A DNA stretch of 51,549 bases from Candidatus Methylomirabilota bacterium. Lineage in GTDB: Bacteria; Methylomirabilota; Methylomirabilia; Rokubacteriales; CSP1-6. The notes under the pieces are model-generated. The model saw only the letters and a list, made by a program, of their open reading frames with translations. It did not search any database and had not been told where the DNA came from. Below, one piece after another: positions 4,139 to 31,228 of the stretch. The DNA lies in the NCBI GenBank assembly GCA_035249225.1, contig DATFGS010000274.1:1-51549 (forward strand), read 5' to 3'. The translations under genes and the position numbers were made by a program. Position 1 is the first letter of the stretch; each line of letters begins with the position of its first letter.

Positions 4139-4771
4139 TCATGCCCGGAGCTTCCGCCCGGTCTCGCGGGCCTGGTTGAGGCGGGCCATCGCATCATGGG
4201 AACCTCCCTCGTGGTCGGGGTGCGCGGCCTTGGCGAGTTTGCGATAGGCGTCGTCGATCTGCTCGAGGCTGGCGGTCGGCAGCACGCCCAGGATCTCGAA
4301 CCATTGCTCGCCCGCAGGGAGCGCGGCGTAGCCGGCGAACGCCTGCTCCAGCGTGCCCACGCCGTAGCGGTCGACGGCGCGGATGGCCTCGATGTGGGCC
4401 GCGATCGCGGCGATGTTATCGGCGACGCGGAGCCAGCGGTCACAGGCGAGCGTACGCGGCTTGCCCTCGAGCTGGAAGTAGACGGCCGCGCCCGGGTCAA
4501 GGGGGTCGCGTTGGTCGGAGCGGGGAAGGCCGTCGAGACGGAGAACGAGATTCGTCGAGAGGATCTCGTTCGCCGCGCCGAGGCGATCCAGTTCAAGGCG
4601 GAGGCGCTGGGTCGCAGTGTAGACGGAGATCTCGCTGGATGTCCGCCATGACTGCTGGCCGTCGCTACTGTACTTCCGCGAGCTCTGCGAGAAGCGGGCG
4701 CGCTGGCGGTGGCGCGGCTCGGTCCGGCGCCAGCCGGCGGGCCACGCGAGCGGGTAGCGTTGTTGATTCAT
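4139..4771 (-). CDS. J-domain (DnaJ-like) protein
   Basis: C-terminal J domain WFEILGVLPTASLEQIDDAYRKLAKAAHPDHEGG with the HPD motif. Start ATG 4771 (MNQQRYPLAWPAGW) has an ATGA overlap. Confidence 0.8.
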   Translation of the reverse strand: MNQQRYPLAWPAGWRRTEPRHRQRARFSQSSRKYSSDGQQSWRTSSEISVYTATQRLRLELDRLGAANEILSTNLVLRLDGLPRSDQRDPLDPGAAVYFQLEGKPRTLACDRWLRVADNIAAIAAHIEAIRAVDRYGVGTLEQAFAGYAALPAGEQWFEILGVLPTASLEQIDDAYRKLAKAAHPDHEGGSHDAMARLNQARETGRKLRA

Positions 4772-5556: not shown

Positions 5557-5793
5557 TCAGTCATCTCCGATCTTCAGGCCCAATTCTTCCCGCAGGAGCG
5601 CGCTGGTCGCACAGAGCCAGTCAAGCCGCGCGGGGGTTGCCCAGGGCGGCACCGTCCCCTGCCACGTCCGCGGGGGTGGCCCGCCCGCGCAGTAACGAGC
5701 CAGCCCGGGGTTCTCCGCTACGTCGAGCAGCGATGACACCGTGAGTAGAGCGGCGGCGGTGACCAGCAGGAGCGCAAGGAGACTGTTGAGCAT
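5557..5793 (-). CDS. Small membrane/secreted protein (78 aa)
   Basis: MLNSLLALLLVTAAALLTVSSLL is signal/TM-like. TGATG junction with the upstream Wzy_C gene. Confidence 0.55.
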   Translation of the reverse strand: MLNSLLALLLVTAAALLTVSSLLDVAENPGLARYCAGGPPPRTWQGTVPPWATPARLDWLCATSALLREELGLKIGDD

Positions 5794-6830
5794 CAGTCTT
5801 GAGCGTGGGTTGCCGGCAGGGCGAGGACGATGACCGCGGTGGCCGCCACGATCGCCACGTGGAAGGGGAACGTCCCCGCGCAGAGGACGGCGAGCGCCCA
5901 CGCGCCCGGGTGGCCCACTAGCCGCGCCCGGTGGATCCACACCCACCAGACGACGAAGCCGAGCCCCACCGCGCCCCCCTCGAAGAGGAGTTGCAGATAT
6001 TCCTGGTGGGCCTGCGCGAAATGCTCGCGGGTGTCGAACTGGGGCAGGTACCACGCCCAGGAGCCGGGGCCCAGGCCGAAGACGATGCCGTGGTCCCACC
6101 AGACGCGGAGGCCCTGCCGCCAGACCTCGAGGCGGGACCAGAGGCTATCCCAGGTCTTGTCGGCCCACCACCAGCCCGCGAGCACCGCGCCGATGGTCGC
6201 CGGCGGGCCCAGGAACCGCCAGGCGTGGCGATAGCGCACGGCGAGGGCGATGAGAAGGGCGAGCAGGCCGAGTCGGTTCCTGGCGAAGATCTGGCCCGCA
6301 AGACAGGCAGGAATCGACCACCACGGGGCCGCGGCGCCCACGAGCGCGAGGTAGGCGCCGAGCCATGTGTCATTGCCGAGGGTGCCGACCATGGTCCCCG
6401 TCGCCTTGAAGGGGGCGTCGGCCGCGTAGAAGGGATCGAGCCCGGCGAGCTGGAGCCCCGCGAGCACGGCCTGGACGACCCCGGAGAGGCCCAAGAGGAA
6501 GCGCAGGAGGTCGGTCCACGGCCACCCAAGCCGCCTGACGAGGATGAACGCGGCCGCGCCTAGGGCGACGGCGTCGGCCATGAGCCAGGCGCGGGCTGGG
6601 ACCGGCGCCCGGAGGGCATCGAGGGCGAGGTAGGCGGCGAACAGGCCGAGCGGGAGGTCGTAGCGGACGACCCACGCGGCGACGCCCAGAATCGCGAGGA
6701 GGTGCCAGACGACTAGCGGGGAGTTCGCCGCGGCGATGCCGGCGGGCCACTGGTAGAGCAGGAGCAGGCCGGTGAAGGGCAGGGCGATGATCGCGACGGT
6801 CGCGCCGAGGAGGAGCTCGAGGCGGGTCAT
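5793..6830 (-). CDS. O-antigen ligase/polymerase-like polytopic membrane protein (Wzy_C family), paralog 1
   Basis: About 10 hydrophobic segments. Motifs: FKATGTMVGTLGNDTWLGAYL, ARNRLGLLALL and GLGPGSWAWYLPQFDTREHFAQAHQEYLQLLFEGGAVGLG (the Wzy_C signature loop). Confidence 0.8.
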   Translation of the reverse strand: MTRLELLLGATVAIIALPFTGLLLLYQWPAGIAAANSPLVVWHLLAILGVAAWVVRYDLPLGLFAAYLALDALRAPVPARAWLMADAVALGAAAFILVRRLGWPWTDLLRFLLGLSGVVQAVLAGLQLAGLDPFYAADAPFKATGTMVGTLGNDTWLGAYLALVGAAAPWWSIPACLAGQIFARNRLGLLALLIALAVRYRHAWRFLGPPATIGAVLAGWWWADKTWDSLWSRLEVWRQGLRVWWDHGIVFGLGPGSWAWYLPQFDTREHFAQAHQEYLQLLFEGGAVGLGFVVWWVWIHRARLVGHPGAWALAVLCAGTFPFHVAIVAATAVIVLALPATHAQD

Positions 6831-8483: not shown

Positions 8484-8662
8484 CGCGACTCCGCCTGATA
8501 TTTCGCCATTGCCGGGTTCTCGCCGTTCATCCCGGTAGGCCGGTGCCAAGGCTGCCTCCCGGCGACGTTCTGGCGCCACGCCCCGCAGCGATAGCACCAG
8601 ATGATGCGCCCGCCGCAGATCAGCCACGTCGATTGGCGGTGATCGTGACGCTGGCGCTTCAT
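8480..8662 (-). CDS. Small Cys-containing protein (60 aa, zinc-ribbon-like)
   Basis: WLICGGRIIWCYRCGAW. ATGA overlaps at both ends. Confidence 0.45.
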   Translation of the reverse strand: MKRQRHDHRQSTWLICGGRIIWCYRCGAWRQNVAGRQPWHRPTGMNGENPAMAKYQAESR

Positions 8663-9015
8663 CGCGGCTCCAATTCCGCCACCAGATCCGGGAATGGGCG
8701 CCACCGCACCGGCCGCCCGGCCGCGCGGAGCTCCTGCTTGATCTTGGGGCCGGAGACGTGGTTAGTGGTGTGGGTGACGATGTCGAGCTTCGGCAGGATC
8801 TTCGGGTGCTGGATCAGCCAGGTCGCGACGTCGCGGCCGGCGCGGGGCTCCTTGCCGAGGTCGTGGTCGAGGTAGAGGCGGTCGAAGTGATGGCCCGCCG
8901 CCAAGTAGGTGATCGCCTCGAGGGGCTCGTCGGTCCAGGTGATGTCATGGCCGACGAAGTGCTGGCGGAACCACTCGATGTGGGCAGGGAAGTCTTCGAC
9001 GAGTAGGATCTTCAT
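8659..9015 (-). CDS. Stand-alone receiver (CheY-like REC fold) protein
   Basis: MKILLVEDF...RLYLDHDLG...IVTHTTN...GPKIK. Acidic pocket, Asp, Thr and Lys are in the receiver order. No output domain. Confidence 0.65.
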   Translation of the reverse strand: MKILLVEDFPAHIEWFRQHFVGHDITWTDEPLEAITYLAAGHHFDRLYLDHDLGKEPRAGRDVATWLIQHPKILPKLDIVTHTTNHVSGPKIKQELRAAGRPVRWRPFPDLVAELEPR

Positions 9016-9974: not shown

Positions 9975-10153
9975 CGCGGCTCCCGCATATCCGGCCCCGG
10001 AACCGATCGCGGCGGGACGAACGGCCGCTGCTCCGGGCGGCGGCAATGGCAGCCGCATTCGTTCGAGTACTCGCCGGCGGCGTCCTGGAGCCCTAGGCCG
10101 CGGCAATCGCGATGAATCCCGGCGCGGCACGGCTCGCACTTCTTCCTTTTCAT
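9971..10153 (-). CDS. Small Cys-rich protein (60 aa)
   Basis: MKRKKCEPCRAGIHRDCRG...NECGCHC. ATGA overlaps. Confidence 0.45.
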   Translation of the reverse strand: MKRKKCEPCRAGIHRDCRGLGLQDAAGEYSNECGCHCRRPEQRPFVPPRSVPGPDMREPR

Positions 10154-10302
10154 CGAGGAGGGGCCTCCGTCGAGTAGCAGGTCCCGGTCCGGCACCACTC
10201 GCGCCACTCGGCGTTAGTCACATGGCAGCCGAGCGCATACCCGATGAAGACGGCCCCGAGCAGCAGCGCCGCAGCAATGAGCGCGAAGAGGAAGCACCCC
10301 AT
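10150..10302 (-). CDS. Tiny membrane protein (50 aa)
   Basis: MGCFLFALIAAALLLGAVFIGYALG followed by a Cys-containing tail. Confidence 0.4.
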   Translation of the reverse strand: MGCFLFALIAAALLLGAVFIGYALGCHVTNAEWREWCRTGTCYSTEAPPR

Positions 10303-10325
10303 CACGACAGCGTCGTCCGGCTGGC

Positions 10326-11351
10326 TCACCGCGCCACCGCCGCACAGATCACCAGCCACATCAGTCCCACCGGTCCGACGCGGCAGAAGATCGTCCCGCT
10401 CGCGAGTACCGCCCCGCAGACCGCGGCCGCCGACCAAGGTTCGCCGAACTGCACGCCCGCCCCGACCCGCCACGCGAAGGCGAGCACCGCCACCGCCCCG
10501 AGCCAGCCGTACTCGACCGCATGCTGCACCGGCTCACAGTGAAACGAGTCCATCGTCGGCCACCCCGCGCGCAGCGTGTACGACCGCAGCCGCACGCCCA
10601 CCCCGTAGCCGCCGAAGAGCCCGCGCGTCCCGACCCAGCCGATCCTCGAGCGCGTGCACCACCGCCACGCCAGCGCGACCCCCCGCGTCCGCATCCAGAG
10701 CGAGTCGAGCGAGTCCCCGCGCGGCGTCCACCGCTCCACCCACCCGACCCGCTTCCCCCCGCGCAGCCGGATCCCCAGCACGGCGACCCCCACCAGCGCG
10801 ACCCACAGCGCCCCCGTCCACGGCCACCGCACGACCGACGCGGCCGCGAGCGCGACGACCGCCAGCCACGAGGGCCCCGAGAGCCAGAGCCCCACGCCGT
10901 ACACCGGCCACGTCCAGGGCGACGAAAGCGCCATCACCAGCGCGAGGAACGCGCCGACGAAGGTCCGCTGCCCGAGCCAGGCGTGCACGCGCTGACCGAC
11001 CCACCAGTCGTCAAGCGCGCACGCCACGCAGAGACACGCGGCGGCCTGCCAGCCCGCGAGCACGTACTCCCAGCCCCAGCTCGGCACCGCACGCGCGAGA
11101 TACCACGTCGCCGCGATCCCGACCCAGGTCCACGCCGCCTCGCTATGCTCGTCTGATCGCCAGCTCCAGAGGAACCACGTCGCCATCGCGGCGAGCCACC
11201 ACTCGCCCTGGGCGGCCGCGACCGAGCCGCCGACGGCGATCAAAGCGAGCAGCCAGAGCGAGCGCGCCCCGTTGATCTGGTCGGCGGCGATCCACTCCAG
11301 CCGGAGCATCGGCGCGGCGAGGGCCGCGAGGGTGGCGAGGAGGGCGGTCAC
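10326..11351 (-). CDS. O-antigen ligase/polymerase-like polytopic membrane protein (Wzy_C family), divergent paralog 2
   Basis: 341 aa, about 10 TM segments. Motifs: LGQRTFVGAFLALV and GGYGVGVRLRSYTLRAGWPTMDSFHCEPVQHAVEYGWLG. GTG 11351 forms a GTGA overlap with the radical SAM stop. Confidence 0.65.
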   Translation of the reverse strand: MTALLATLAALAAPMLRLEWIAADQINGARSLWLLALIAVGGSVAAAQGEWWLAAMATWFLWSWRSDEHSEAAWTWVGIAATWYLARAVPSWGWEYVLAGWQAAACLCVACALDDWWVGQRVHAWLGQRTFVGAFLALVMALSSPWTWPVYGVGLWLSGPSWLAVVALAAASVVRWPWTGALWVALVGVAVLGIRLRGGKRVGWVERWTPRGDSLDSLWMRTRGVALAWRWCTRSRIGWVGTRGLFGGYGVGVRLRSYTLRAGWPTMDSFHCEPVQHAVEYGWLGAVAVLAFAWRVGAGVQFGEPWSAAAVCGAVLASGTIFCRVGPVGLMWLVICAAVAR

Positions 11352-12331
11352 AACAAAATCTCCTCTTGGGCGTAGTGACTGGGCTTTGCCTGGTAGCGGG
11401 AGCCGACCCAATCCGCCCAGGGGACGACCTTGTCGTAGCCGCGCAGGACCCACCGCTGATAGCCCATCAGCTCGGGTGTCCGGTTGAAGACCATCGGATA
11501 GGGGAGTGCGCCGAAGTCGCGAAGCTGGCGCCGTCGGGTCTCGCGGTCCTCGTGCGTCTCGCCGGGCCAGTAGCCGATCAGCATATAGACCATGATGTTC
11601 CGCGGCTTGACGCCGTGACGAACCAGGGCTTCGAGGCCCGCGAAGAGCCGGGCCCCATCTTTCTTGTTGTCCCACGCCGTATAAATCCGCCGACGCAGCA
11701 TCCCGTCGTCGCGGTAGTCGACGCTCGCGATCGCGGCGGCGGTCTCGTCGGTGAGCATCCGCGCGTTGATGCCCTGATTAAACGAGACGCGGAACCGGCC
11801 GGCGCGCAGCTCGTCAATACGATCTCTCCAGCGCGGCTGACCGAAGAAATCGTTATCGAGCAGGAAGACCTCGCGGGGCCAGGGATCGCCGCGCCAGATC
11901 TCCGCGATCGTCGCCTCCTCCCGGACCGCGCCCTCTTTGCGAGGCACGACGCAGAACGAGCAGCGAAGGCGGCACCCGCGCTGCGTGAAGCCGAGCGAGG
12001 GGCGGAAGCGCGGATAGAGCGAATAGTCGAGGGCCATCGTGTCCACGCCCAGCGACTCCAGGCCGAGGCCGATGTCCCAGCCGGTGCCGCCGAGGATCGC
12101 GCCCGGGTACAGGCGGCGGACGAGTTCAGCGGCGGGCCGGGTTCGCTCGAAGATCAACGAGCCATAGACGCGGTCCCAGGCGGCGGGGTCGCCAAGCTGG
12201 GGCGCGACGAGGCGCGGATTATCCGCGCGCCGAAACTCGACGACATCGCCGCGGCCTTTGTGCCAGGCCGACAGGCGCATGAGGGCCAGGTTAGGCAGCT
12301 TCCCGTCTAGGTGCAGGAGGAGGACACGCAT
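11348..12331 (-). CDS. Radical SAM enzyme with N-terminal B12-binding-like domain
   Basis: CxxxCxxC cluster motif GCRLRCSFCVVP. N-terminal MRVLLLHLDGKLPNLALMRLSAWHK is Rossmann-like. Start is ATG 12331 (alternative 12358). Confidence 0.8.
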   Translation of the reverse strand: MRVLLLHLDGKLPNLALMRLSAWHKGRGDVVEFRRADNPRLVAPQLGDPAAWDRVYGSLIFERTRPAAELVRRLYPGAILGGTGWDIGLGLESLGVDTMALDYSLYPRFRPSLGFTQRGCRLRCSFCVVPRKEGAVREEATIAEIWRGDPWPREVFLLDNDFFGQPRWRDRIDELRAGRFRVSFNQGINARMLTDETAAAIASVDYRDDGMLRRRIYTAWDNKKDGARLFAGLEALVRHGVKPRNIMVYMLIGYWPGETHEDRETRRRQLRDFGALPYPMVFNRTPELMGYQRWVLRGYDKVVPWADWVGSRYQAKPSHYAQEEILL

Positions 12332-12363
12332 TAAGTGTCCGTCCCACAAGGCAAACATAGGCG

Positions 12364-12420
12364 TTGACAGAACGAAGCAGCTTCGTTATTCTTCTGACAC
12401 AACGAAGCGGCTTCGATAAT
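12364..12420 (+). promoter_or_regulatory. Tandem duplicated promoter-operator unit driving the plus-strand island
   Basis: TTGACA (12364-12369), 17 nt, TATTCT (12387-12392), with palindrome AACGAAGC-A-GCTTCGTT (12371-12387) filling the spacer. The second unit is CTGACA (12394-12399), CGAAGC-G-GCTTCG (12403-12415), GATAAT (12415-12420). AGGAGG SD at 12429-12434. Confidence 0.6.
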
Positions 12421-12438: not shown

Positions 12439-12855
12439 ATGAACAGGATCCAGGTGAAGGTGGGCGGGAAGCTGATCGGCGAGCGCAAGACGCCGCGCTC
12501 GTACACGCACGCGGTCGTGGCCGAGCGGTTCGCGCGCGTCGACTGCGAGCGCGTTCCGGTCCCGGCCGTGAACGGCGTGCCGCAGTCGGACCGGATGAAC
12601 CGCACCGTCGTCCCGGTGGAGCCCCAGCTCGAAGTGATCTCCTACCACCACGGCCTGCCGCTGGCGATGAAGGGGCTCGCCGCCTTCGAGGCGCAATACT
12701 GGCACCGCGAGACGTACCGGAACGCGACGGTGTTCGTCGCCGAGATCGTGCCCGTGCAGCCGCGCAAGCCCGTCACCCTGACGGAGCCCTGCCCCTCGTG
12801 CGGGACGCGCCAGGGCAACCACCCGCGCGGCTGCGAAAACCGAGAGGGCGACTAG
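12439..12855 (+). CDS. Hypothetical protein (138 aa), first gene of plus-strand island
   Basis: AGGAGG SD 5 nt upstream. C-terminal CPSCG...GC motif. No recognisable family. Confidence 0.7.
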   Translation: MNRIQVKVGGKLIGERKTPRSYTHAVVAERFARVDCERVPVPAVNGVPQSDRMNRTVVPVEPQLEVISYHHGLPLAMKGLAAFEAQYWHRETYRNATVFVAEIVPVQPRKPVTLTEPCPSCGTRQGNHPRGCENREGD

Positions 12856-13020
12856 ATGGCCGACGAGGAGACGATCAACGTGATCCTCGCGGACTCCGAC
12901 GCCGTCTGCGATTGCGGCGCGGATCCGCGGTTCGTCCACTCGCTCGACGGGTGGTTCTTCGAGATCCGGCAGACGCCGACCGCCGACGTGGCGATCGTGC
13001 GCTGCCCCCTCTGCTGGTAA
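12856..13020 (+). CDS. Tiny zinc-ribbon-like protein (54 aa; below the ORF-track cutoff)
   Basis: TAGATG junction. Product is MADEETINVILADSDAVCDCG...VRCPLCW (CxC...CxxC). Confidence 0.5.
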   Translation: MADEETINVILADSDAVCDCGADPRFVHSLDGWFFEIRQTPTADVAIVRCPLCW

Positions 13021-13041
13021 CCCATAACCGAGGAGGTCACC

Positions 13042-13443
13042 ATGACCACCACCACGAAGACCCCACTCACCCCATCCGGCGAAGTGCCGGACCTGTTCGA
13101 CCGGCTGCTCGCCGGCCTGATCGGTCGCCCCGACGTGATGAGCACGAAGCCCTCGACGCGCCAGACGGTCCCGCCCCTCGGGATCGGCGGCGTCGCGACC
13201 TACGTCGTCCGGACCTTCCGCGTCCAGGACGAGGACCGCGCCTCCGAGGATCTGATCTTCCTGGAGTGCTACGACGCGAAGGGGCAGACGCGCCTCGCCC
13301 TGCCCCCGGCCGTCGCGGACATCATCGCCCGGCAGCGCGAGGCCCTCACCACGAAGAGCCGCACCGCGGCGGCGAAGCGCGTCGCCGCCGATCGCAAGGC
13401 GCGCGGCGAGAAGCCCGCCTTCATGCGGAAGCGGGGAGGCTGA
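13042..13443 (+). CDS. Hypothetical protein (133 aa) with basic C-terminal tail
   Basis: GAGGAGG SD. The C-terminus KSRTAAAKRVAADRKARGEKPAFMRKRGG suggests nucleic-acid binding. Confidence 0.65.
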   Translation: MTTTTKTPLTPSGEVPDLFDRLLAGLIGRPDVMSTKPSTRQTVPPLGIGGVATYVVRTFRVQDEDRASEDLIFLECYDAKGQTRLALPPAVADIIARQREALTTKSRTAAAKRVAADRKARGEKPAFMRKRGG

Positions 13444-13446
13444 TCC

Positions 13447-13647
13447 ATGAAGAGCCGGCTCACCATCGTTCGGAACTGCAAGCGCGCTGGGATGACCCGC
13501 GCCGAGGTCGCCGCGAAGATCCGCGGCTCGATCACGGAGGCCAGCACCCGCGAGGGCTGGAGCAAGGCCGAAACCGCGATGGCCCTCGCGGAATGGCACC
13601 GGCATCTGGACAAGGTCTTCGGGAAGGAGGAGGCCCACCCGTGCTAG
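13447..13647 (+). CDS. Small putative HTH protein (66 aa)
   Basis: CKRAGMTRAEVAAKIRGS resembles a helix-turn-helix. Starts 3 nt after the previous stop. Confidence 0.5.
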   Translation: MKSRLTIVRNCKRAGMTRAEVAAKIRGSITEASTREGWSKAETAMALAEWHRHLDKVFGKEEAHPC

Positions 13648-13808
13648 AGTCCCCGGCCATGAAGACCCCGGCGCCGACCTGCCCCAAGCATCCCCACGTC
13701 CGCCTCCGCTGCCCGGCCTGTAACGGCCGGAAGGGGGGTAAGGTGATGAGCCCGAAGAAGCTGAAGGCCCTGAAGCGGATCTCGAAGCTCCCGCGCCCGC
13801 GGGAGTAG
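13641..13808 (+). CDS. Tiny zinc-ribbon protein with basic tail (55 aa from GTG 13641; 49 aa from ATG 13659)
   Basis: GGAAGGAGGAGG SD 8 nt before the GTG. CPKH...CPAC plus KKLKALKRISKLPRPRE. Confidence 0.45.
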   Translation: MLESPAMKTPAPTCPKHPHVRLRCPACNGRKGGKVMSPKKLKALKRISKLPRPRE

Positions 13809-18290: not shown

Positions 18291-18541
18291 GCGGGCACCA
18301 CGACATCCGTCGGGTCGGTCACCGCGGCCAGCCGGTCGACGATCGCCTTAGCGTCCTTCGACGCGACCCCCTCCCGGTCGAAGACGGTGATGCAGACGAA
18401 CAGCGAGCGCCGGACCTGGGGCGGGTAGGGGACGTGGAGCTTCCCCGTCTCTAGGTCGCGCTGAATCGAGCGGGCGACCCGCACGGCGTCGTCGAGCGTC
18501 ATCTTCGCCGCCGCCTCGGCGATGGTCTGGGCCTGGCTCAT
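18284..18541 (-). CDS. Hypothetical protein (85 aa)
   Basis: The start was trimmed to ATG 18541 (ATGA overlap with the ATPase stop). Confidence 0.55.
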   Translation of the reverse strand: MSQAQTIAEAAAKMTLDDAVRVARSIQRDLETGKLHVPYPPQVRRSLFVCITVFDREGVASKDAKAIVDRLAAVTDPTDVVVPAW

Positions 18542-19875
18542 GCGGCGCTCCTCGCGAGCAGCGTGTTCACTTCCATGATCGCGGCCGGGTCCTTCGCCGC
18601 GACCTTCTTGAATAGCTCGATCGCGTCCTGGCACGCCGCGAAGTCGACCTTCTCGATGTCGTCCGTCCCGAACATCGACTTGAAGAGGCGGATGCGGGCG
18701 TCCTTGCCGATCGGCGGGTCCCACTTGTCGAGCTCGCGGTGGAGTTCCTGTTCATCGGACATCGGCCCGAGCGGGCTCTCGACCGCGGGCGGTGCGATGA
18801 CCGGAGCCGGGGCCTTGACCTCCGGGATCTGCGACTGGCGGAGGTCGGCCCGGATCTTCTCGAGCCCGGCCTTCAGGGTGGCGCTCGGCAACGGCTGGAT
18901 CTTCGCCCACTGGCGGACGCCGAACCCGATGGCGAGGAGCCGGGCCTTCGCCTCGACCTGCTCGCGCGCCTGACCGGGGTGGGCCTTCTGGAGTTCGGTG
19001 ACGATGTCCTTCAAGATCTGCTCGCGGTCGTCTGGAACAACTGTTTCTTGAGCCGACGCGGGGGCGGTGGCGCCGCTGCGGGGACTCGAACCCCGTTCTT
19101 CGCCTTGAAGGGGCGAGGGCCTACCCGTAGCCGACAGCGGCTCGGTCCCGCCGCGCGCCCAGGCCGCGAGCTTCGCGCCCGTCTCCTCGGTGATCGGCTT
19201 GTCGAGTGGGAAGAACTCCCGATGCTGCTCCTGCAGTTTGATCGGCTGCGGCACGCCCGGCTTGTCGGGCAGGAGGAGGATGCTCACGGTCAACTCGTAG
19301 GGGAGGTTCTTCTCGCAGATCGGAACCCACCCCTTGAACCCGGCGAGGGTCTGTTTCGGGACGACCTTCGTCTCGCCGCGCTCCTTGATAATCTCGATCT
19401 TGTCCTCCGCGCGCATGCACAGGATCAGGTGCGCGCGGCACTGGAGCAGCTTCGAGACCATCCGGCGGTGCTCGCCCTTGGGCTTCACCCAGGACAGCAT
19501 CTTGACCTTGTCCTCGCCGCCGAGCCGCTTCAGCTCCGCCTCCTGCATATCCAGGATGCCGCCCTCGCCCGCGTGCTCGTGCGAGAACGAGTCGACGACG
19601 ATGACCGGATAGCCGGCCTTGTCGGCGGCGACGATCGCCTCCTGATAGGCCGAGGGCGAGAACGGCGGATGGAGGTCGGCATGATCGAACTGGAAGCGGT
19701 CGGCGTAGTGCTTCGCGCGGCCGGCTTCGGTGTCGATGACCGCGAAGGGCTTGTCGCCCGACATCCCCTTGGCGAGGCGCATCGCGGTATAGGTCTTGCC
19801 GCCGCCGCTGGCGCCGGCCAGGCCGAGGATCAGGCCGACGCTCTCGCGCTTGGCCGGGCGGAAGGAGATGGTCAC
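18538..19875 (-). CDS. Sak4-like / AAA_24-type RecA-fold ATPase with long C-terminal extension
   Basis: Walker A GLAGASGGGKT and Walker B VIVVDSFSHE. GTG 19875 forms a GTGA overlap. The ORF stays open through an embedded tRNA-like element (19068-19141) into a ~180-aa C-terminal region. Confidence 0.75.
   Translation of the reverse strand: MTISFRPAKRESVGLILGLAGASGGGKTYTAMRLAKGMSGDKPFAVIDTEAGRAKHYADRFQFDHADLHPPFSPSAYQEAIVAADKAGYPVIVVDSFSHEHAGEGGILDMQEAELKRLGGEDKVKMLSWVKPKGEHRRMVSKLLQCRAHLILCMRAEDKIEIIKERGETKVVPKQTLAGFKGWVPICEKNLPYELTVSILLLPDKPGVPQPIKLQEQHREFFPLDKPITEETGAKLAAWARGGTEPLSATGRPSPLQGEERGSSPRSGATAPASAQETVVPDDREQILKDIVTELQKAHPGQAREQVEAKARLLAIGFGVRQWAKIQPLPSATLKAGLEKIRADLRQSQIPEVKAPAPVIAPPAVESPLGPMSDEQELHRELDKWDPPIGKDARIRLFKSMFGTDDIEKVDFAACQDAIELFKKVAAKDPAAIMEVNTLLARSAA
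19068..19141 (-). tRNA. tRNA-like cloverleaf (Glu-like anticodon UUC, C33, encoded CCA) nested in frame inside the ATPase ORF
   Basis: Minus-strand sequence: GCCGCTG TC GGCT ACGGGTA GGCC C TCGCC CCTTCAA GGCGA AGAA CGGGG TTCGAGT CCCCG CAGCGGC G CCA. It has a 7-bp acceptor stem, U8, GG in the D-loop, G53-C61 and a consensus T-loop. Position 33 is C instead of U. Confidence 0.6.
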
Positions 19876-22267: not shown

Positions 22268-22326
22268 AACGTGCTATGTTCTCGCGTACCGCCGGAGGGG
22301 GAGCCGAGCGGCGGCAGGAGGGCCCG

Positions 22327-22926
22327 ATGAGAGCCTTCGCGTGGGTGCTGGTCGGATTTGGCTTGGTAATCGTGGTGATGGCGATGTATATGACGACGGC
22401 GGACAACCGCGCACGTCGGCAGGCGGCGGTCACCATTGCCGCACGTGGCGGCGGCTATACGCAACCCGAGGAGAGGTCGCCGACCGCCGGGATCTTCTTC
22501 GGCTTCGGGATGACGGCCCTCGGCGTGCTCGTCCTCGCCGTCCGCCGCCCCGGATCGCCGGTCATCGTGGTCGCCCTGTTCCTGCTCTCTGGGTGCACCC
22601 TTCCGGGCTACCAGGGCGGGCCGATACCGCGGACGACGCAGTACACCTACCCGGGGCGCTCCTTCAATCCGGATACCGGGCTCGCCCACAGCCCGATCCC
22701 GACCGTCGCCGAGCCGCTTGACGGCGGCGTGTTCGTCTACGGGATGGTCTTTCACGATGGCAGCAGCGCGAACAGCGTCGACCCGTTCGACACCTTCGCC
22801 GCGTGCGAGACTGGCCGCCGGGCCTATGCCGACCTAACGGCTGAGCGGGTCAAGGACGGGGCGGCGCCGGTGATGACGACGAAGTGTTTCCGGGCCCACG
22901 ACACGGGCGGGCACCAAACCCGATGA
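22327..22926 (+). CDS. Membrane protein with internal lipobox-like LLSGC and a periplasmic Cys-pair domain (199 aa)
   Basis: AGGAGGG SD before ATG 22327. Hydrophobic segments AFAWVLVGFGLVIVVMAMYM, GIFFGFGMTALGVLVLAV and VIVVALFLLSGC. Confidence 0.65.
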   Translation: MRAFAWVLVGFGLVIVVMAMYMTTADNRARRQAAVTIAARGGGYTQPEERSPTAGIFFGFGMTALGVLVLAVRRPGSPVIVVALFLLSGCTLPGYQGGPIPRTTQYTYPGRSFNPDTGLAHSPIPTVAEPLDGGVFVYGMVFHDGSSANSVDPFDTFAACETGRRAYADLTAERVKDGAAPVMTTKCFRAHDTGGHQTR

Positions 22927-23156
22927 CCAGCGTCGCGGCGGCCTGCCTCTATCTTCTGATGTTCTGCCCGGCTGATGCGATCCCGCCCGCTGCGCCGCCG
23001 CTCGCGCACGGCCAAGGGTTCTGGGCGATCTATAAGACGCTTCCGGACGGGACGGAGCGCGCGGAGACTTACGAGAACGCCGATGCTTGCGCGGCGGATT
23101 CGACGGTGCTGCGGGACTTCGGGCACGACGCTTCGATCTGCTACGAGCTGCTCTAG
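22923..23156 (+). CDS. Small secreted protein (77 aa) related to the C-terminal domain of the preceding gene
   Basis: ATGA overlap. Signal-like MTSVAAACLYLLMFCPADA. Shares the ...ACA/ACE...C(F/Y) Cys-pair pattern. Confidence 0.55.
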   Translation: MTSVAAACLYLLMFCPADAIPPAAPPLAHGQGFWAIYKTLPDGTERAETYENADACAADSTVLRDFGHDASICYELL

Positions 23157-26390: not shown

Positions 26391-26803
26391 CAGGACACCT
26401 TCTGGAGGTTGACGACGGTATGCTCGATCTCGTGGCGCATGAAGCGCGCCCCGGCCGCATAGGTCGCGGTGATAAGCGCGATATGCTTCTCCGACTCCTT
26501 GGTCGCGTCGACGAGGGCCAGGTCGAGGGCGTCCAGGACCACGACCAGCGCCCCGCCCGCCGAGAGCGTGCCTCGCCCGATGTTCAGGATGTTCGTCCCG
26601 TTCACGCCGTTGATCAGCGTCAGCGCGGCGTCGAGGTTGTAAAGGGTCAGGGTCAATGCGGAGACGTCGCCGGAGCCGAGCGCGCTCCCATCCTCCTTCT
26701 TGAGGTCGGCCGTATAGCGGAAGGCGGACTTCTCGGGGATCTGGAGGACCGTCCCGTCGGTGTTCTTCGCGACTGACCGGATCTGGGTGGATGCAGTTGC
26801 CAT
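26390..26803 (-). CDS. Hypothetical structural/fibre-associated protein (137 aa)
   Basis: TAATG junction with the fibre gene. Beta-rich composition. Confidence 0.6.
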   Translation of the reverse strand: MATASTQIRSVAKNTDGTVLQIPEKSAFRYTADLKKEDGSALGSGDVSALTLTLYNLDAALTLINGVNGTNILNIGRGTLSAGGALVVVLDALDLALVDATKESEKHIALITATYAAGARFMRHEIEHTVVNLQKVS

Positions 26804-29376
26804 TAGCTCGACGCTCCATAGGTTTCGGCGGTGGCCCCAGGCACGCGCCCGGCGCCGGGGAGGAGGCCCGCCGTCGCGAAGACCTCGGCCTGCACGCGGC
26901 CGGCGCGCATCGTCTCGGCGGTCGCCCCCGCCACCGCGAAGGCTTCCATGGTGGCCCGGCCGATCTGGTAGGTCGGCGCGATGATCTGGACGAGCTCAAC
27001 GAAGCCCCCGGCCGGGATGAAGAAGGCGAGGAATTCCTCAGCGAGGTTGACCTGCTCCTGGAAACTCTTTGCGATCCTGACGATGTGCGTCTCGGTCAGC
27101 CCGAGGGTATCCTGCACCGCCTTCCCGACTTGGCGCCGAAGCGTCTCGGTCAAGAGCACGTTGTCGCTGAGCGCCTTCGTCTTGATCACACTGGTCACGA
27201 GTTGCTCGGTGAACGCGGCGAGCTCGGCGATGGTCTTGCGGACGGTGGCAGTGTCGGTCTCCGTCAGGCTGACCGTCTCCGCGGTGGCCCGGCGAACGAG
27301 GCGGGTAAGCGTCTCGTTCAGGGACAGGGCGTCCGCGCGCGTGGCGAGGACCGCCTTCAGGGCCGTCAGGTTCTCGGTCAGGCTCACCGTCTCGGCGAAG
27401 GTCTTGTTCGTTTGCCGCGCCTGGGCCTCGGACAGGAGCACGGTCTCGGCGATGCTCTGCGACTTCCGGACGAGGAGGGTGAGGTTCTCCGAGAGGAGGA
27501 GCGTGTCGGCCAGGGGCCGGAGGATGAACTTCAGCGTCCCGAGGTTCTCGGTGATGGCGACGGTGTCGGTCAGGTTCTTCCGGGTCTCGCGCGCCAGCGT
27601 CTCAGTCAGGCTCAGGGTCTCCGCGATCGACGCCTGCTTCCGCGCCGCGAGCTGGAGTTGCTCGGTCAGGGAGAGCGTCTCCGGCAGGTTCCGGATGATG
27701 AGCTTGATCGCGGTCAGGTTCTCGGTGAGCTGGAGCGTCTCGGCCACCGTCTTCGAGGGCCGCTTCGCCAGGGTCTCCGACAGGCCGATCGTATCGGCCA
27801 GGCCGTTGACCTTGGTCACGGCGAGGCGAAGCTGCTCGGTAAGGCTCAGCGTGTCGGAGACGCCGCGAAGGACGACCTTGATCGCGCCGAGGTTCTCCGA
27901 AAGGCTCAGGGTCTCGGCGAGCGGGTGGGTGATGACGCGCCGGAGGCTCTCGGTCAGGGCCACGGCCTCAAGGATCGTCTTCCGGGACTGGACGGTCTGA
28001 TCTTCGGTGAGCGCCAGCACTTCGCCGAGCGCTTTCCGTGCCTGGAGCTGATCAGCTTCCGATAGGGCGAGCGTGTCGGAAGGAGTCTCGTTGAACTGGG
28101 TGCCGCCGGCCGCGACCTTGAACACCGCGACGCAGCCCGTCGCGTCGTCGGCGACCGAGATCGTCCAGGTCGCGTTCTTCGATGCCGCCGACGCCTGGAC
28201 GTCGTACTCCACCTGACAGCCAGTCGGCGTGTGGTCGAAGAGCTCCACGTACCCGGCGCCGGGCGTGGTCGAGAACGCGGAGCTGTTCGAGGTCAGGAAG
28301 CCCAGGTAGAGGTGTCCGTCCGCCGAGGCCGTCACCGAGTTCGAGTCCGGCGTCGTCGTCGAGGCGTTGACCTTGGAGTTCGTGCCGTCCAGCGCCCCCG
28401 AGGTCTCGGCGCCCACCCACTCGCAGACCACGAGGACGCGACTGCCCGTCGAGGCGGAGAATGTCACCGTCACCGCCTCGCCGTTGTTGCCCGCCGCAAC
28501 GTTCTCCGCGTAGCGGATCGTCACCCGCTCGGGGTTCCCTCCGTTCGTGACCGCGTTTTGCCACGTGTTGCCGTCGTCATCGGCGACGCTCGAGATAGTT
28601 TGAGCGGAGTCGTTGCGGATGCACGCGGTCAGGAGGCTGCCGGCCAGCCGCGGCCAAATGTTGACGGCCACGGTGCTCCCGGTCCCGCCCGGGACGAAGG
28701 AGACCAACTGGCGCAGTGTCCAGCCCCCATCCGCGGCCGGCGGATTCGGGATGCCGACCGTGATCGAGCAGGTCCCGTTCGGGGTCTGGTTGTCGGCATA
28801 CGCGCCGGGATTCTCCGACGCCGCGGCGGTGAGCGCGCGGTCAGAGACCGCCACATCCCCCGTCGCCGCCCCCGCCACATCCGCCCGCAGCGTGTAGTTG
28901 GTCGGCGCCGTGGGGGTCAACGTCTGCGAGGCCGTCAGGTGCCAGGCCGAGATGGCCAGCACCAGCCAATCGCGCGTGCTGTCGAGGGTCACGTTCGGCG
29001 GGTCAGGGGCACCCGTGCCCGTCGCGGTGACCGACGCCGCCTCAATAGCGTCGAGTCCGAAGGTGCCAGTCTGCACGACGTAGCAGCCGGTCCATGTCTC
29101 GGTCCCGACCGAGGAGGTATAGGCCTGGTAGCTGGCGGCGCCGGCCGCGGTGGCGATCTTCCCGGCGACGGAGAGGCGGCCGTCGGTGGAGCCGTCGTTG
29201 TGGCTGTGCGACAGGATCTCGACGAAGCCGGCTTGCAGCGTGTGGGTCGGGATGCCAGCGCCCGCCCGCTCCCAGGTGAACACCACCACCAGGTCACCGA
29301 CCTGGGTGCCCGCTGGGGAGGTCGTCGACAGCCCCGCGACGGGGGCGGTCTCAGCGCGGCGGGAGGGCGCGGCCAT
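26803..29376 (-). CDS. Tail fibre / receptor-binding protein with two N-terminal beta-rich domains and a C-terminal repeat array
   Basis: 857 aa. About 19 copies of (D/E)(T/A)(L/V/I)xLx(E) in the C-terminal half. Located at the end of the tail module. Confidence 0.75.
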   Translation of the reverse strand: MAAPSRRAETAPVAGLSTTSPAGTQVGDLVVVFTWERAGAGIPTHTLQAGFVEILSHSHNDGSTDGRLSVAGKIATAAGAASYQAYTSSVGTETWTGCYVVQTGTFGLDAIEAASVTATGTGAPDPPNVTLDSTRDWLVLAISAWHLTASQTLTPTAPTNYTLRADVAGAATGDVAVSDRALTAAASENPGAYADNQTPNGTCSITVGIPNPPAADGGWTLRQLVSFVPGGTGSTVAVNIWPRLAGSLLTACIRNDSAQTISSVADDDGNTWQNAVTNGGNPERVTIRYAENVAAGNNGEAVTVTFSASTGSRVLVVCEWVGAETSGALDGTNSKVNASTTTPDSNSVTASADGHLYLGFLTSNSSAFSTTPGAGYVELFDHTPTGCQVEYDVQASAASKNATWTISVADDATGCVAVFKVAAGGTQFNETPSDTLALSEADQLQARKALGEVLALTEDQTVQSRKTILEAVALTESLRRVITHPLAETLSLSENLGAIKVVLRGVSDTLSLTEQLRLAVTKVNGLADTIGLSETLAKRPSKTVAETLQLTENLTAIKLIIRNLPETLSLTEQLQLAARKQASIAETLSLTETLARETRKNLTDTVAITENLGTLKFILRPLADTLLLSENLTLLVRKSQSIAETVLLSEAQARQTNKTFAETVSLTENLTALKAVLATRADALSLNETLTRLVRRATAETVSLTETDTATVRKTIAELAAFTEQLVTSVIKTKALSDNVLLTETLRRQVGKAVQDTLGLTETHIVRIAKSFQEQVNLAEEFLAFFIPAGGFVELVQIIAPTYQIGRATMEAFAVAGATAETMRAGRVQAEVFATAGLLPGAGRVPGATAETYGASS
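27000..28060 (-). repeat. Degenerate in-frame tandem repeats inside the fibre gene
   Basis: ETLSLTE, DTLSLTE, ETVSLTE, DTIGLSE and similar recur about every 17-20 aa between roughly residues 440 and 790. Confidence 0.75.
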
Positions 29377-30391
29377 CGCTTACGCTTTGAGTGCGCTCTT
29401 CCATGGCCGCGCCGACCACGACGGCGGCCAGCATCCCGAGCGCCGGGACGCGAAAGGGGAACATCCCGACCGACAGGATGCCGAGCGCGACCACCGCCGG
29501 GCCCCAGCTCGTCCAGACCGTCGCGCGCGCCGACCACGTCCAGGCCGTGAGGATGGCGAACCCGATCAGCCCGGCCTCGACGAGAACCTGGAGGGGCTCG
29601 TTATGGGCATGCAGGAAGAGCCCGCCGGGTTGGCCGAGCGCGAACTGATAGCTCGGCATATACGTCGCCCACCCGTTCGGCCCGAGCCCGAGGAGGACGC
29701 CGTTATGGAGCCAGAGCGTCAGACCGTACCCCCAGGCCGCGCCGCGGTTCCAGAACGAGTCGAGAGACCCGACGACGTCGCGGTCGGGGTCGAGCAGGGT
29801 CGCCACGGTCAGGACGACCGCGATGAACGCGGCCGCGGGCACCGACCAGCGCCAGTACCGCCGCCACCGCCACGCCACCGCGGCCGCGAACGCCACCAGC
29901 CCCAGTCGATGCCCGCAAGCCACGAGGCCGGCGGCGAACAGCGGCAGGAGGACGGGCGGCGACAGCGCCCCCGTCATGGCCATCGCCGAACCGGCCCAAT
30001 TCGGGTTCCCCATCGTGCCCGTCGCCCGGAAGCCGTCGAGGAACTCCGGCCGGTCGAACCCCGCCGCCTGAGCCAGGGCGTAGACCGCCTGGGCCGCCCC
30101 CAGGGCCACCAGGACCGGCCGGGCATACGGGAAGGCGTACCCGCGCCGGATCAGGGCGTAGGCGAGCAGGCCGAGCGCCAGGAGTTGCACGGCGACGAGC
30201 CCGCGCTGCTCGCTAGGGGTGATCAGCGTCAGGAGGGCGCAGTAGGCGAGGAAGACCCCGGCCCAGCCGTCCACATGCACCGCGAGCCAAGCCCCGCCCG
30301 CCACGAGCACCAAGGCGGCGAAGAGGCGCGCGTCTCCCCCGGTGCGAGTGGCGAGCATCAGCAGGGCCAGGATCGCGAGGACGACCGGCAC
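29351..30391 (-). CDS. O-antigen ligase/polymerase-like polytopic membrane protein (Wzy_C family), paralog 3
   Basis: FRATGTMGNPNWAGSAMAM, GHRLGLVAFAAAV and GLGPNGWATYMPSYQFALGQPGGLFLHAHNEPLQVLVEAGLIGF. GTG start at 30391. Its end overlaps the fibre start by 26 nt. Confidence 0.8.
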   Translation of the reverse strand: MPVVLAILALLMLATRTGGDARLFAALVLVAGGAWLAVHVDGWAGVFLAYCALLTLITPSEQRGLVAVQLLALGLLAYALIRRGYAFPYARPVLVALGAAQAVYALAQAAGFDRPEFLDGFRATGTMGNPNWAGSAMAMTGALSPPVLLPLFAAGLVACGHRLGLVAFAAAVAWRWRRYWRWSVPAAAFIAVVLTVATLLDPDRDVVGSLDSFWNRGAAWGYGLTLWLHNGVLLGLGPNGWATYMPSYQFALGQPGGLFLHAHNEPLQVLVEAGLIGFAILTAWTWSARATVWTSWGPAVVALGILSVGMFPFRVPALGMLAAVVVGAAMEERTQSVSDGRALPPR

Positions 30392-30394
30392 GGC

Positions 30395-31120
30395 CTACTC
30401 GATGGTCAGGTCGTAGGTCGTCTGCAGCGAGTCGCCGGAGGACAGGTTGACCGTGGCGAACACGATGCGGCTCCAGATCGTGTCGGTGACGCCGTTGCCC
30501 TGGCCCACCGCCGCCGAGCTCAGCCGGTTGAACAGGCCCCACTCGCTGACCGCGATGGAGGCGTCGACCGTGTTCAGGCCGACCGTCCGGTAGATGCTCT
30601 GAGAGCTCCCGACGACCTGGGTCCCGAGGGCGCGCTGGTTGTCTGGGTTGTACTGGGTGGTCGCCTCGGCGCCGAGCGCGGTATCGGCCTCGGCCGCAGC
30701 GACGGCGCCCGTCCCGATCGCGTGGTACTTCCAGGTCGCGACGGTGCCGGTGCAGCCGGAGCCGGTGTTCGCGATGAAGCACTCGCGGAGGGCCCGCTCG
30801 GCGACGTCGGGGATCAGGTTGCGCTTGAGCGCGATCGCCTTGACGCGGCACCCGCCAGCCTGGGCATCCTTGACGAATTGCGGGGCGAGCCACTTCGCGA
30901 GCGCGTAGCGGGCCGCCTGCTCGAGCTGATAGGCGTCCCACGCCTCGGCCATCCGATCGCGCTGGGCCTCGCACGCCGCCGTGTAGGCGATGGCCATCAT
31001 CGTCCCGTGGATGCGGCGGCCGGGTTCCTTGATCAGCCAGGGCGAGAGCTCCACGCCCGCCGCGAAGAGGAACGACGCCGCCACCAGAACCGCGGTCACC
31101 TTGCCGAGTCGCTTCATCAT
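30395..31120 (-). CDS. Signal-peptide/TM-anchored protein with a tail-collar-fibre-like C-terminal domain (241 aa)
   Basis: AAGGAGG SD. MMKRLGKVTAVLVAASFLFAAGVELSP. The C-terminus AIGTGAVAAAEADTALGAE...VSEWGLFNRL...IVFATVNLSSGDSLQTTYDLTIE is reminiscent of collar-fibre domains (weak call). Confidence 0.55.
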   Translation of the reverse strand: MMKRLGKVTAVLVAASFLFAAGVELSPWLIKEPGRRIHGTMMAIAYTAACEAQRDRMAEAWDAYQLEQAARYALAKWLAPQFVKDAQAGGCRVKAIALKRNLIPDVAERALRECFIANTGSGCTGTVATWKYHAIGTGAVAAAEADTALGAEATTQYNPDNQRALGTQVVGSSQSIYRTVGLNTVDASIAVSEWGLFNRLSSAAVGQGNGVTDTIWSRIVFATVNLSSGDSLQTTYDLTIE

Positions 31121-31142: not shown

Positions 31143-31178
31143 AAAAAGGGCGGAACCGGATGCGCTCCGGTCCCGCCC
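31143..31178 (-). terminator. Intrinsic terminator (bidirectional geometry)
   Basis: Minus-strand sequence GGGCGGGACCGGA-GCGCA-TCCGGTTCCGCCC followed by TTTTTGTTTG. An A-tract on the other side gives plus-strand symmetry. Confidence 0.75.
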
Positions 31179-31228
31179 TGTTTTGTCGCCTGCCGGATAG
31201 CTAGCCCGGCAAGCTGATCAATCGAGTT

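Follow-up and report, generated by a model that had tools for sequence, protein, structure and literature searches.

The window analysed here is the whole of contig DATFGS010000274.1 (assembly GCA_035249225.1), a stretch of 51,549 nucleotides. Three genes for polytopic membrane proteins with the Wzy_C domain, which is shared by O-antigen ligases and polymerases, were found on its minus strand. Copy 1 (5793..6830, minus strand) encodes a 345-residue Wzy_C-subfamily membrane glycosyltransferase and is annotated as 'hypothetical protein' (NCBI VKA83_09120). Copy 2 (10326..11351, minus strand) encodes a divergent paralogue of 341 residues, recognised by profile comparison, structural model and motif residues. 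Copy 3 (29351..30391, minus strand) encodes a Wzy_C protein of 346 residues that bears the NCBI name 'O-antigen ligase family protein'. The whole window makes up the complete genome of a temperate tailed phage, which comes from a bacterium of soil or groundwater that has not been cultured. A first reading made from the sequence only had proposed three paralogous Wzy_C membrane proteins in this phage; codon-position guanine-plus-cytosine (GC) content, homology and a hidden Markov model (HMM) search bore out the proposal at these coordinates.

The three open reading frames are homologous genes

The GC contents at the first, second and third codon positions (GC1/GC2/GC3) were 0.73/0.51/0.93 for copy 1, 0.68/0.61/0.94 for copy 2 and 0.74/0.54/0.92 for copy 3. 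The GC3 values, 0.925, 0.942 and 0.916, respectively, compare with 0.92 for the tape-measure gene, and the codon-position pattern of all three copies was the same as that of the tape-measure and tail-fibre genes. Long open reading frames (ORFs) in other frames overlap each copy, and the overlapping plus-strand ORFs showed the inverted pattern. The overall GC content of the window is 69%, and the possibility that copies 1 to 3 are spurious ORFs of such a genome was ruled out by codon-position GC.

Copies 1 and 3 shared 37% identity over 290 residues (E=5e-31). Copy 2 was only 22-24% identical to the other two, and its pairwise match to copy 3 was marginal (E=9e-4). Profile-profile comparisons were performed with alignments built from each copy's own homologues. 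By hhalign, copy 2 matched the copy-3 family with a probability of 98.3% (E=1.2e-14, 290 columns) and the copy-1 family with 97.3% (E=2.7e-11), and the copy-1 and copy-3 families matched each other with 99.9%. An HMM of the subfamily described below found these three copies in the window and no further one, copy 1 scoring E=3e-90. In addition, the start of copy 2 at 11351 is backed by the N terminus of an orthologue, and the copy-2 orthologues with 59% and 39% identity extend over the full length. These results confirm that the three ORFs are real genes and are homologous to one another.

Assignment to the Wzy_C / GT-C_B fold family

Copy 3 matched Pfam Wzy_C (PF04932) with 43.5 bits (E=3.5e-11; gathering cutoff, 31.7). 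The HMM check suggested by the sequence-only reading thus gave a direct answer for copy 3, whereas copies 1 and 2 had no direct Pfam Wzy_C match and were placed only through their homologues and profiles. The copy-1 orthologues P0011 and P0012 matched Wzy_C, the latter at 51.6 bits, and the copy-2 homologue P0008 matched it at 32.0 bits against the cutoff of 31.7. Among 139 subfamily members, 70 matched Wzy_C and no other family.

AlphaFold2 models covered copies 2 and 3. The model of copy 3 had a pLDDT of 83.5 and a pTM of 0.82, and that of copy 2 a pLDDT of 92.1 and a pTM of 0.89. When the models were compared with the PDB by Foldseek, the top match was the O-antigen ligase WaaL (7TPG) for both, with a TM-score of 0.61 for copy 3 and 0.54 for copy 2 (probability 1.0 in each case), and the SEDS polymerase RodA was second in both comparisons. 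This neighbourhood of WaaL and RodA is that of GT-C_B as described previously (PMC10920833). On the other hand, a sequence-profile search of the PDB with alignments of 13 and 139 sequences gave no WaaL or other true match, and the link of the copies to WaaL is therefore one of fold comparison only. All three copies belong to the Wzy_C / GT-C_B fold family. This assignment is correct but ordinary, because NCBI already names copy 3 as an O-antigen ligase family protein.

Family models of O-linking oligosaccharyltransferases (O-OTases) were also compared. Copy 3 scored 16 bits against TfpM, for which the cutoff is 600 bits. The NCBIfam matches of the subfamily were weak ones to TfpM only, in 9 of 139 members, with a best E value of 3e-6 and covering the HN motif alone. 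In the models of copies 2 and 3 the protein stops right after the last transmembrane (TM) helix and has no C-terminal domain.

Catalytic residues and membrane topology

In a subfamily alignment of 162 sequences, numbered here by copy 3, R216 was present in 162 sequences, H263 in 155 and G274 in 161. Near-invariant were also Glu or Asp at position 265, Gln268 and Glu272, with Gly274 completing the HX10G motif. The full conserved set (Arg, His, Glu/Asp, Gln, Glu and Gly) is held by all three copies: copy 1 keeps the Arg aligned with R216 and H275-x10-G286, and copy 2 keeps R221 and H271-x10-G282 with E273, Q276 and E280 intact. The motifs quoted in the sequence-only reading were present, namely GT(M)GN, RLGL in copies 1 and 3, and H(N/Q/C)E..Q...E.G..G. 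That reading had also called copy 2 divergent. This holds insofar as copy 2 matches the other copies at the profile level only, but its 'FHCE' is not aberrant, since the clade of copy 2 has Cys there more often than any other residue.

In the family profile, R216 and H263 align with R288 and H338 of WaaL of Escherichia coli K-12. In the solved WaaL structure (CmWaaL), Arg191 and Arg265 bind pyrophosphate and His313 activates the acceptor (PMC10920833). In Wzy-beta, the O-antigen polymerase of phage D3, Arg254/270/272 and His300 of the HX10G motif are essential (PMC4815439), and D3 Wzy-beta holds the same HN...G motif as the family profile. When the two phosphate-binding Arg residues and the His of WaaL were sought in the subfamily, one Arg and the His proved to be conserved and the second Arg clade-dependent. 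This second Arg (copy-3 positions 162/204) lies in RLGL, at the start of a helix, in the copy-1/3 clade, and in TPRGD, within the loop, in the copy-2 clade and most other members. The different positions hint at a different pyrophosphate-binding geometry between the clades.

The conserved signature indicates that the copies are predicted active, inverting transferases of undecaprenyl-pyrophosphate (Und-PP)-linked glycans. Both a proven ligase, WaaL, and a polymerase proven in a phage, D3 Wzy-beta, carry this signature, so that a choice between polymerase and ligase cannot be made from sequence and fold; nor can the sequence separate either from a protein O-glycosylase. The catalytic His was considered as a discriminator of ligases from polymerases and was rejected, since D3 Wzy-beta has His too (PMC4815439).

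The proteins are predicted to have about ten TM helices and two outward loops (110-129 and 200-264), and they are about 60-70 residues shorter than WaaL. By the positive-inside rule, the basic clusters RR82-83, WRWRRYWRW 175-181 and R289 put both of these acidic loops in the periplasm. The topology prediction that the sequence-only reading had recommended thus places the catalytic loop on the periplasmic side. The first loop contains a conserved G-x-x-G-N motif, but the Arg at position 122 is not conserved, although an RX10G-type motif would be expected there for Wzy.

Distribution and evolution of the subfamily

An exhaustive HMMER search over 1.84 billion representatives (clusters at 50% identity) defined a compact subfamily of about 345 residues. 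It comprised 185 clusters at E<1e-30, nearly all of them 330-390 residues long and matching end to end, and a further 8,340 matches at E<1e-3 represent the wider superfamily. The best matches were metagenomic singletons without names. PHROGs contained no family for any copy and NCBIfam, apart from the weak TfpM matches, no model for any copy. A tblastn search of 50,697 GenBank phage records with all three copies gave nothing, and a scan of 185,579 species genomes of GTDB with the copy-2 family gave no match. In scans of IMG/VR, the copy-2 family gave two contigs (L002 and L003) with one copy each, and the families of copies 1 and 3 gave no match.

Every context examined for members of the subfamily was phage-like, on contigs that were all partial and carried a single copy. 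The copy-3 orthologue on L001 lies in a syntenic tail module and the gene for P0012 in an integrase-proximal early region. Other members were located just upstream of packaging and P22-portal genes (L005 and L006), with primase, lysozyme and ParB-like genes (L007), with HNH, DpdA and methyltransferase genes (L011), and on the two IMG/VR contigs. On the P0012 contig the integrase gene is 2 kb from the copy-1-type gene, with no copy-2-type gene between them; copy number appears to vary among relatives. These members form a compact, apparently phage-restricted Wzy_C clade that is newly recognised here.

In a neighbour-joining tree of the 162 sequences, the copy-1 and copy-3 groups were sisters in a joint clade of 11 leaves (6 + 5). 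Copy 2 fell across the deepest split, in a clade of 45 leaves. Copies 1 and 3 therefore derive from an old duplication within this phage lineage, and each has positionally conserved orthologues; copy 2 is an independent and older lineage. The copies share the codon bias of the genome, and none of them therefore looks recently acquired. Orthologues of each copy hold their position in related contigs. The copies are under purifying maintenance, as seen from the retained positions of the orthologues and from a GC3 that is the same as in the rest of the genome.

Genomic setting of the three copies

The three copies lie in three different parts of the genome, as had been claimed. The proposed translational coupling was likewise seen in each: the ATG of copy 1 overlaps the stop codon of an upstream 177-residue gene (ATGA), the start of copy 2 overlaps the stop of its upstream gene (GTGA), and the start of copy 3 is 3 nucleotides past the upstream stop. 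Copies 1 and 2 are within a long leftward operon that runs from a divergent promoter-like region at about 12.36-12.44 kb into the terminase gene.

Two small ORFs follow copies 1 and 2. A 78-residue ORF with a hydrophobic N terminus (5557..5793, minus strand; GC3 0.78) begins in overlap with the stop of copy 1 (TGATG), and a 59-residue single-TM ORF (10150..10329, minus strand; GC3 0.83) begins in overlap with the stop of copy 2 (GTGA). Tiny TM proteins therefore do flank these two copies, as the sequence-only reading had described, but they are not kept beside the orthologues: the former is not conserved next to the copy-1 orthologue in L016, nor the latter next to the copy-2 orthologues in L008, L002 and L003. 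The small ORFs were accordingly rejected as conserved partners resembling Iap of phage D3.

Upstream of copy 2 is the gene for a radical-SAM protein (11348..12358, minus strand; Pfam Radical_SAM, 29.6 bits; phrog_9298, E=1.6e-47), for which no relative in the PDB and no closer functional assignment were found. This gene opens the leftward operon at the divergent promoter-like region, where TTGACA-17-TATTCT occurs on the plus strand at 12364-12392. The location of copy 2 in a 'radical-SAM operon' had been proposed earlier, but this pairing is not conserved. The orthologue P0006, which is 59% identical to copy 2, has no radical-SAM neighbour; the functional pair was rejected, and the radical-SAM protein is probably not a functional partner of copy 2.

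Copy 3 has the tail-fibre genes on one side and the lysis cassette on the other, an endolysin and a holin-like gene being located further downstream of its unit. Directly upstream of it is the gene for a 241-residue exported or membrane-anchored protein (30395..31120, minus strand) with a hydrophobic N-terminal signal or anchor, which matches phrog_5417 of unknown function. This protein is 79% identical in L001 (5075-5797) and 98% identical over 53 residues in L010 (2-163). In every case its gene immediately precedes the copy-3 orthologue, and its conservation exceeds that of the Wzy_C gene beside it; the protein is a possible partner or acceptor of copy 3. Immediately downstream of copy 3, with a 26-nucleotide overlap, is the gene for an 857-residue fibrous-repeat protein (26803..29376, minus strand; GC3 0.91). 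It contains at least 12 L(S/T)ExL units at a spacing of 18-20 residues within residues ~450-790, is partly conserved in L001, and gave no match in Pfam and no sequence match in the PDB. The protein looks fibrous and may be a side fibre or a surface-binding protein.

A strong intrinsic terminator (31147..31179, minus strand) with a 14-bp stem, 10 GC pairs and a T-run parts the tail operon from the unit of the 241-residue gene, copy 3 and the 857-residue gene. AAGGAGG and the ATG of the 241-residue gene are within 10 nucleotides after the terminator. There is no room for a promoter between the terminator and this ribosome-binding site. The copy-3 unit would therefore have to be read by read-through or antitermination.

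The phage genome

The first 125 bases of the window are an exact repeat of its last 125 (1-125 / 51425-51549), which makes it a circular, complete assembly of about 51,424 bp. Since the assembly is circular, the terminase and portal genes at opposite ends of the contig are truly adjacent. The minus strand holds nearly every gene. Packaging and head functions are represented by a large terminase, a portal protein, a Mu-F-like protein and a protease-capsid fusion of 761 residues (47166-49451, minus strand), in which the head-maturation protease and major capsid regions match phrog_29592, phrog_4523 and phrog_133. Tail functions comprise a 1458-residue protein of tape-measure size and a tail-fibre-like protein, and there are a SleB-type endolysin with an adjacent small membrane protein and a tyrosine integrase. 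A RecE-like exonuclease, RuvC, an AAA_24 ATPase, a DnaJ-domain protein and the radical-SAM protein are also encoded. The DnaJ-domain protein (210 residues; 4139-4771, minus strand; PF00226, E=2.8e-9) has a C-terminal J domain and lies just downstream of the copy-1 cluster. A stand-alone cREC_REC ('cyclic-phosphate processing receiver') protein of 118 residues (8659-9015, minus strand; PF20274, E=2e-13) is located in the early region and has a 53%-identical relative on the IMG/VR contig L003.

Plus-strand gene blocks were found only at 12439-13808 and 22276-23156, both without family matches, and these are candidates for lysogeny or immunity genes. ARAGORN called a tRNA-Glu(UUC) at 19068-19141 (minus strand), inside the AAA_24 ATPase ORF (18538-19875); the call is probably a false positive. 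The tRNA was rejected as a clue to an attachment site or a host because it sits within a coding ORF.

Megablast against the 50,697 GenBank phage records found no nucleotide relative. In a scan of GTDB genomes with the terminase, the sole relative found was 26% identical and in a Polyangiaceae metagenome-assembled genome (MAG), and the sole match in a scan of JGI metagenomes was a contig of 2.1 kb. Among about 50 window proteins scanned, no flippase, glycosyltransferase, acyltransferase or other glycan-pathway gene was detected.

Comparison with known enzymes

The closest functional precedent is D3 Wzy-beta, which resembles the copies in size, TM count, motif, genomic slot and dependence on a host donor. 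Genes of this type are also found in phi297, PMG1 and PP9W, and in the Variovorax phage VarioGold as VG_p25. D3 Wzy-beta is phage-encoded and has about ten TM helices in 386 residues, compared with about 345 here. In both, the Wzy_C domain is in the last large periplasmic loop, with the Arg and HX10G His that are essential in D3 (PMC4815439). The gene order of D3 is tail fibre, iap/oac/wzy-beta, and then endolysin, attP and integrase, and copy 3 occupies the same slot. In contrast, sequence similarity to D3 Wzy-beta is not detectable past the HN..G motif. The D3 gene is single, oppositely oriented and moron-like and is accompanied by Iap and an O-acetylase, whereas the present phage has three co-oriented, translationally coupled copies and no Iap or Oac homologue.

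Among known structures, copies 2 and 3 match WaaL (CAZy GT121; Cupriavidus metallidurans 7TPG; E. coli K-12) best. This inverting enzyme takes an Und-PP-glycan as donor, and the periplasmic-loop Arg and His of the copies align with R288 and H338 of the E. coli protein. WaaL differs from the copies in its 12 TM helices and about 400-420 residues and in being encoded chromosomally in core-lipopolysaccharide clusters; its acceptor is lipid A-core. The O-OTases PglL, PglS, TfpO/PilO and TfpM share with the copies both the domain and the catalytic His (H324 in PglS; PMC12800693), and weak matches to TfpM were seen here. They differ from the copies in being larger and, in PglL and PglS, in having extra periplasmic C-terminal domains, and the scores of the copies are far under the family cutoffs. 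The Wzy of Acinetobacter baumannii prophages is a phage-borne polymerase that alters the linkage of host-made capsule K units (PMC9241936, PMC13228068). In that case there is one gene per prophage, a known host and proven chemistry, unlike the present copies.

In the literature searched, phage-borne Wzy or Wzy_C genes are documented singly (PMC4815439, PMC9658991, PMC9241936, PMC13228068). D3-type Wzy-beta was a single-copy gene in 13 of 13 GenBank phage records that carry a gene of the D3 type. No precedent for three copies in one phage was found in the literature or in these D3-type records, in agreement with the earlier remark that the layout had no known counterpart. The three-copy layout is new, as is the compact, apparently phage-restricted clade to which the copies belong.

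Proposed function and alternatives

The three copies are real, homologous genes whose fold, topology and catalytic residues are those expected of the family and whose settings are phage-like and positionally conserved. What the three enzymes act on, which acceptor they use, when they are expressed and what the phage gains from them are inferred as follows. The paralogues would be catalytically intact inner-membrane enzymes, with an active site (Arg and the His of HX10G) facing the periplasm, that carry out inverting transfer of host-made Und-PP-linked glycans. Because no other glycan-pathway gene was found among the proteins scanned, the enzymes must use host-made donors, as does D3 Wzy-beta. 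The most likely acceptor would be another lipid-linked repeat unit, so that the enzyme acts as a polymerase forming a new linkage in the manner of D3 Wzy-beta; lipid A-core or a protein would be less likely acceptors. The altered surface polysaccharide would change or mask the receptor and so protect infected cells, lysogens and progeny against further adsorption. Each of the three diverged copies may then have its own specificity for linkage, donor or acceptor, to suit for example different host glycans or serotypes. That the phage uses three periplasm-facing Wzy_C transferases to alter host surface glycans and block superinfection is the interpretation we favour, with a probability of roughly 0.55.

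Several observations weigh against it. The genes of all three copies run in the direction of lytic-cycle genes, are translationally coupled with them and are not opposite-strand morons with their own promoters, so that expression from the prophage, which is the classic route of seroconversion, is not indicated. The copies have no detectable sequence similarity to D3 Wzy-beta or any GenBank phage protein, and the hhalign alignment with Wzy-beta spans only the 20-residue HN motif. The chemistry may also differ among the copies, given the position of the second Arg in the copy-1/3 and copy-2 clades. Finally, the host is uncultured, and the evidence for its identity is the MAG bin label only, the contig having been deposited under a Methylomirabilota MAG.

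Alternatively, one or more of the copies may be WaaL-like ligases or PglL/TfpO/TfpM/WsaB-like O-OTases and not polymerases. Such enzymes would transfer host lipid-linked glycans onto lipid A-core, pilins, S-layer proteins or the 241-residue protein, with the outcome that protein receptors are masked or an exported phage protein is decorated. The ligase WaaL is the only solved structure matched, and the catalytic position is occupied by His, as it is in ligases and O-OTases; in many inverting polymerases of the clan, Asp or Glu stands there (PMC10920833). This residue is nevertheless not diagnostic, since the proven polymerase D3 Wzy-beta has the same His and Arg (PMC4815439). The sole NCBIfam matches were to the O-OTase TfpM, but the score of copy 3 was far under the 600-bit cutoff and came from the HN motif only. 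The alternative is attractive for copy 3, which is consistently beside a conserved, signal-anchored protein that could serve as an acceptor. Against it, copies of about 345 residues and about ten TM helices lack the extra helices of WaaL (12 TM, about 400 residues), as well as the additional C-terminal periplasmic domain of O-OTases of the PglL/PglS type (PMC12800693). On balance we entertain this alternative tentatively, as a possibility that falls well short of an even chance.

A somewhat less probable variant, which we regard as unlikely, combines these activities. A phage-restricted, environmentally widespread clade of ~345-residue proteins would remodel the envelope as part of the infection programme and not by seroconversion of the classical prophage kind. 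The three paralogues would divide the acceptors between them: for example, one might polymerise polysaccharide, another ligate glycans to a lipid or core, and the third O-glycosylate an exported protein, for which the 241-residue neighbour is a candidate.

The enzymes might also serve lytic growth by remodelling or diverting the Und-PP precursor pool or the envelope, and not act as morons of lysogenic conversion. Such a role could be, for example, a fast block of superinfection, keeping progeny from being caught on debris, or the freeing of the lipid carrier. It is consistent with the co-orientation and translational coupling of all three copies with early or late genes, with the inclusion of copies 1 and 2 among the genes of the leftward operon that extends from ~12.4 kb into the terminase gene, and with relatives that lie in early regions or immediately upstream of packaging genes, several of them without an integrase in the retrieved sequence. 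However, the phage itself has an integrase, and copy 3 is downstream of a strong terminator in the classic slot of conversion genes. We consider a lytic role improbable as a distinct explanation; it differs from the favoured one mainly in timing and not in chemistry. The explanation we expect least is that there is only one functional enzyme, one or two of the copies (copy 2 above all) being in decay or without enzymatic activity, for instance a scaffold or an inhibitor of the host polymerase: copy 2 has no Pfam match of its own, 22-24% identity to the others, HC in place of HN and no RLGL Arg, but it keeps R221, H271, E273, Q276, E280 and G282, has a GC3 of 0.94, a very confident full-length fold (pLDDT 92) and full-length orthologues at 59% and 39% identity, and HC with the alternative Arg of TPRGD is normal in its clade of 45 clusters.

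Significance

One classic way in which phages bring about serotype conversion and superinfection resistance is to encode an O-antigen or capsule polymerase, and the examples known until now were single genes from a small number of cultured phages that infect Pseudomonas, Salmonella, Acinetobacter or Variovorax. The present results indicate that one phage can maintain three anciently diverged Wzy_C copies. If these differ in specificity, one phage would be able to alter several surface glycans simultaneously. If true, this would bear on host-range prediction and on the evolution of serotypes in uncultured soil and groundwater bacteria, and glyco-engineering could draw on the subfamily for small enzymes that polymerise or ligate glycans.

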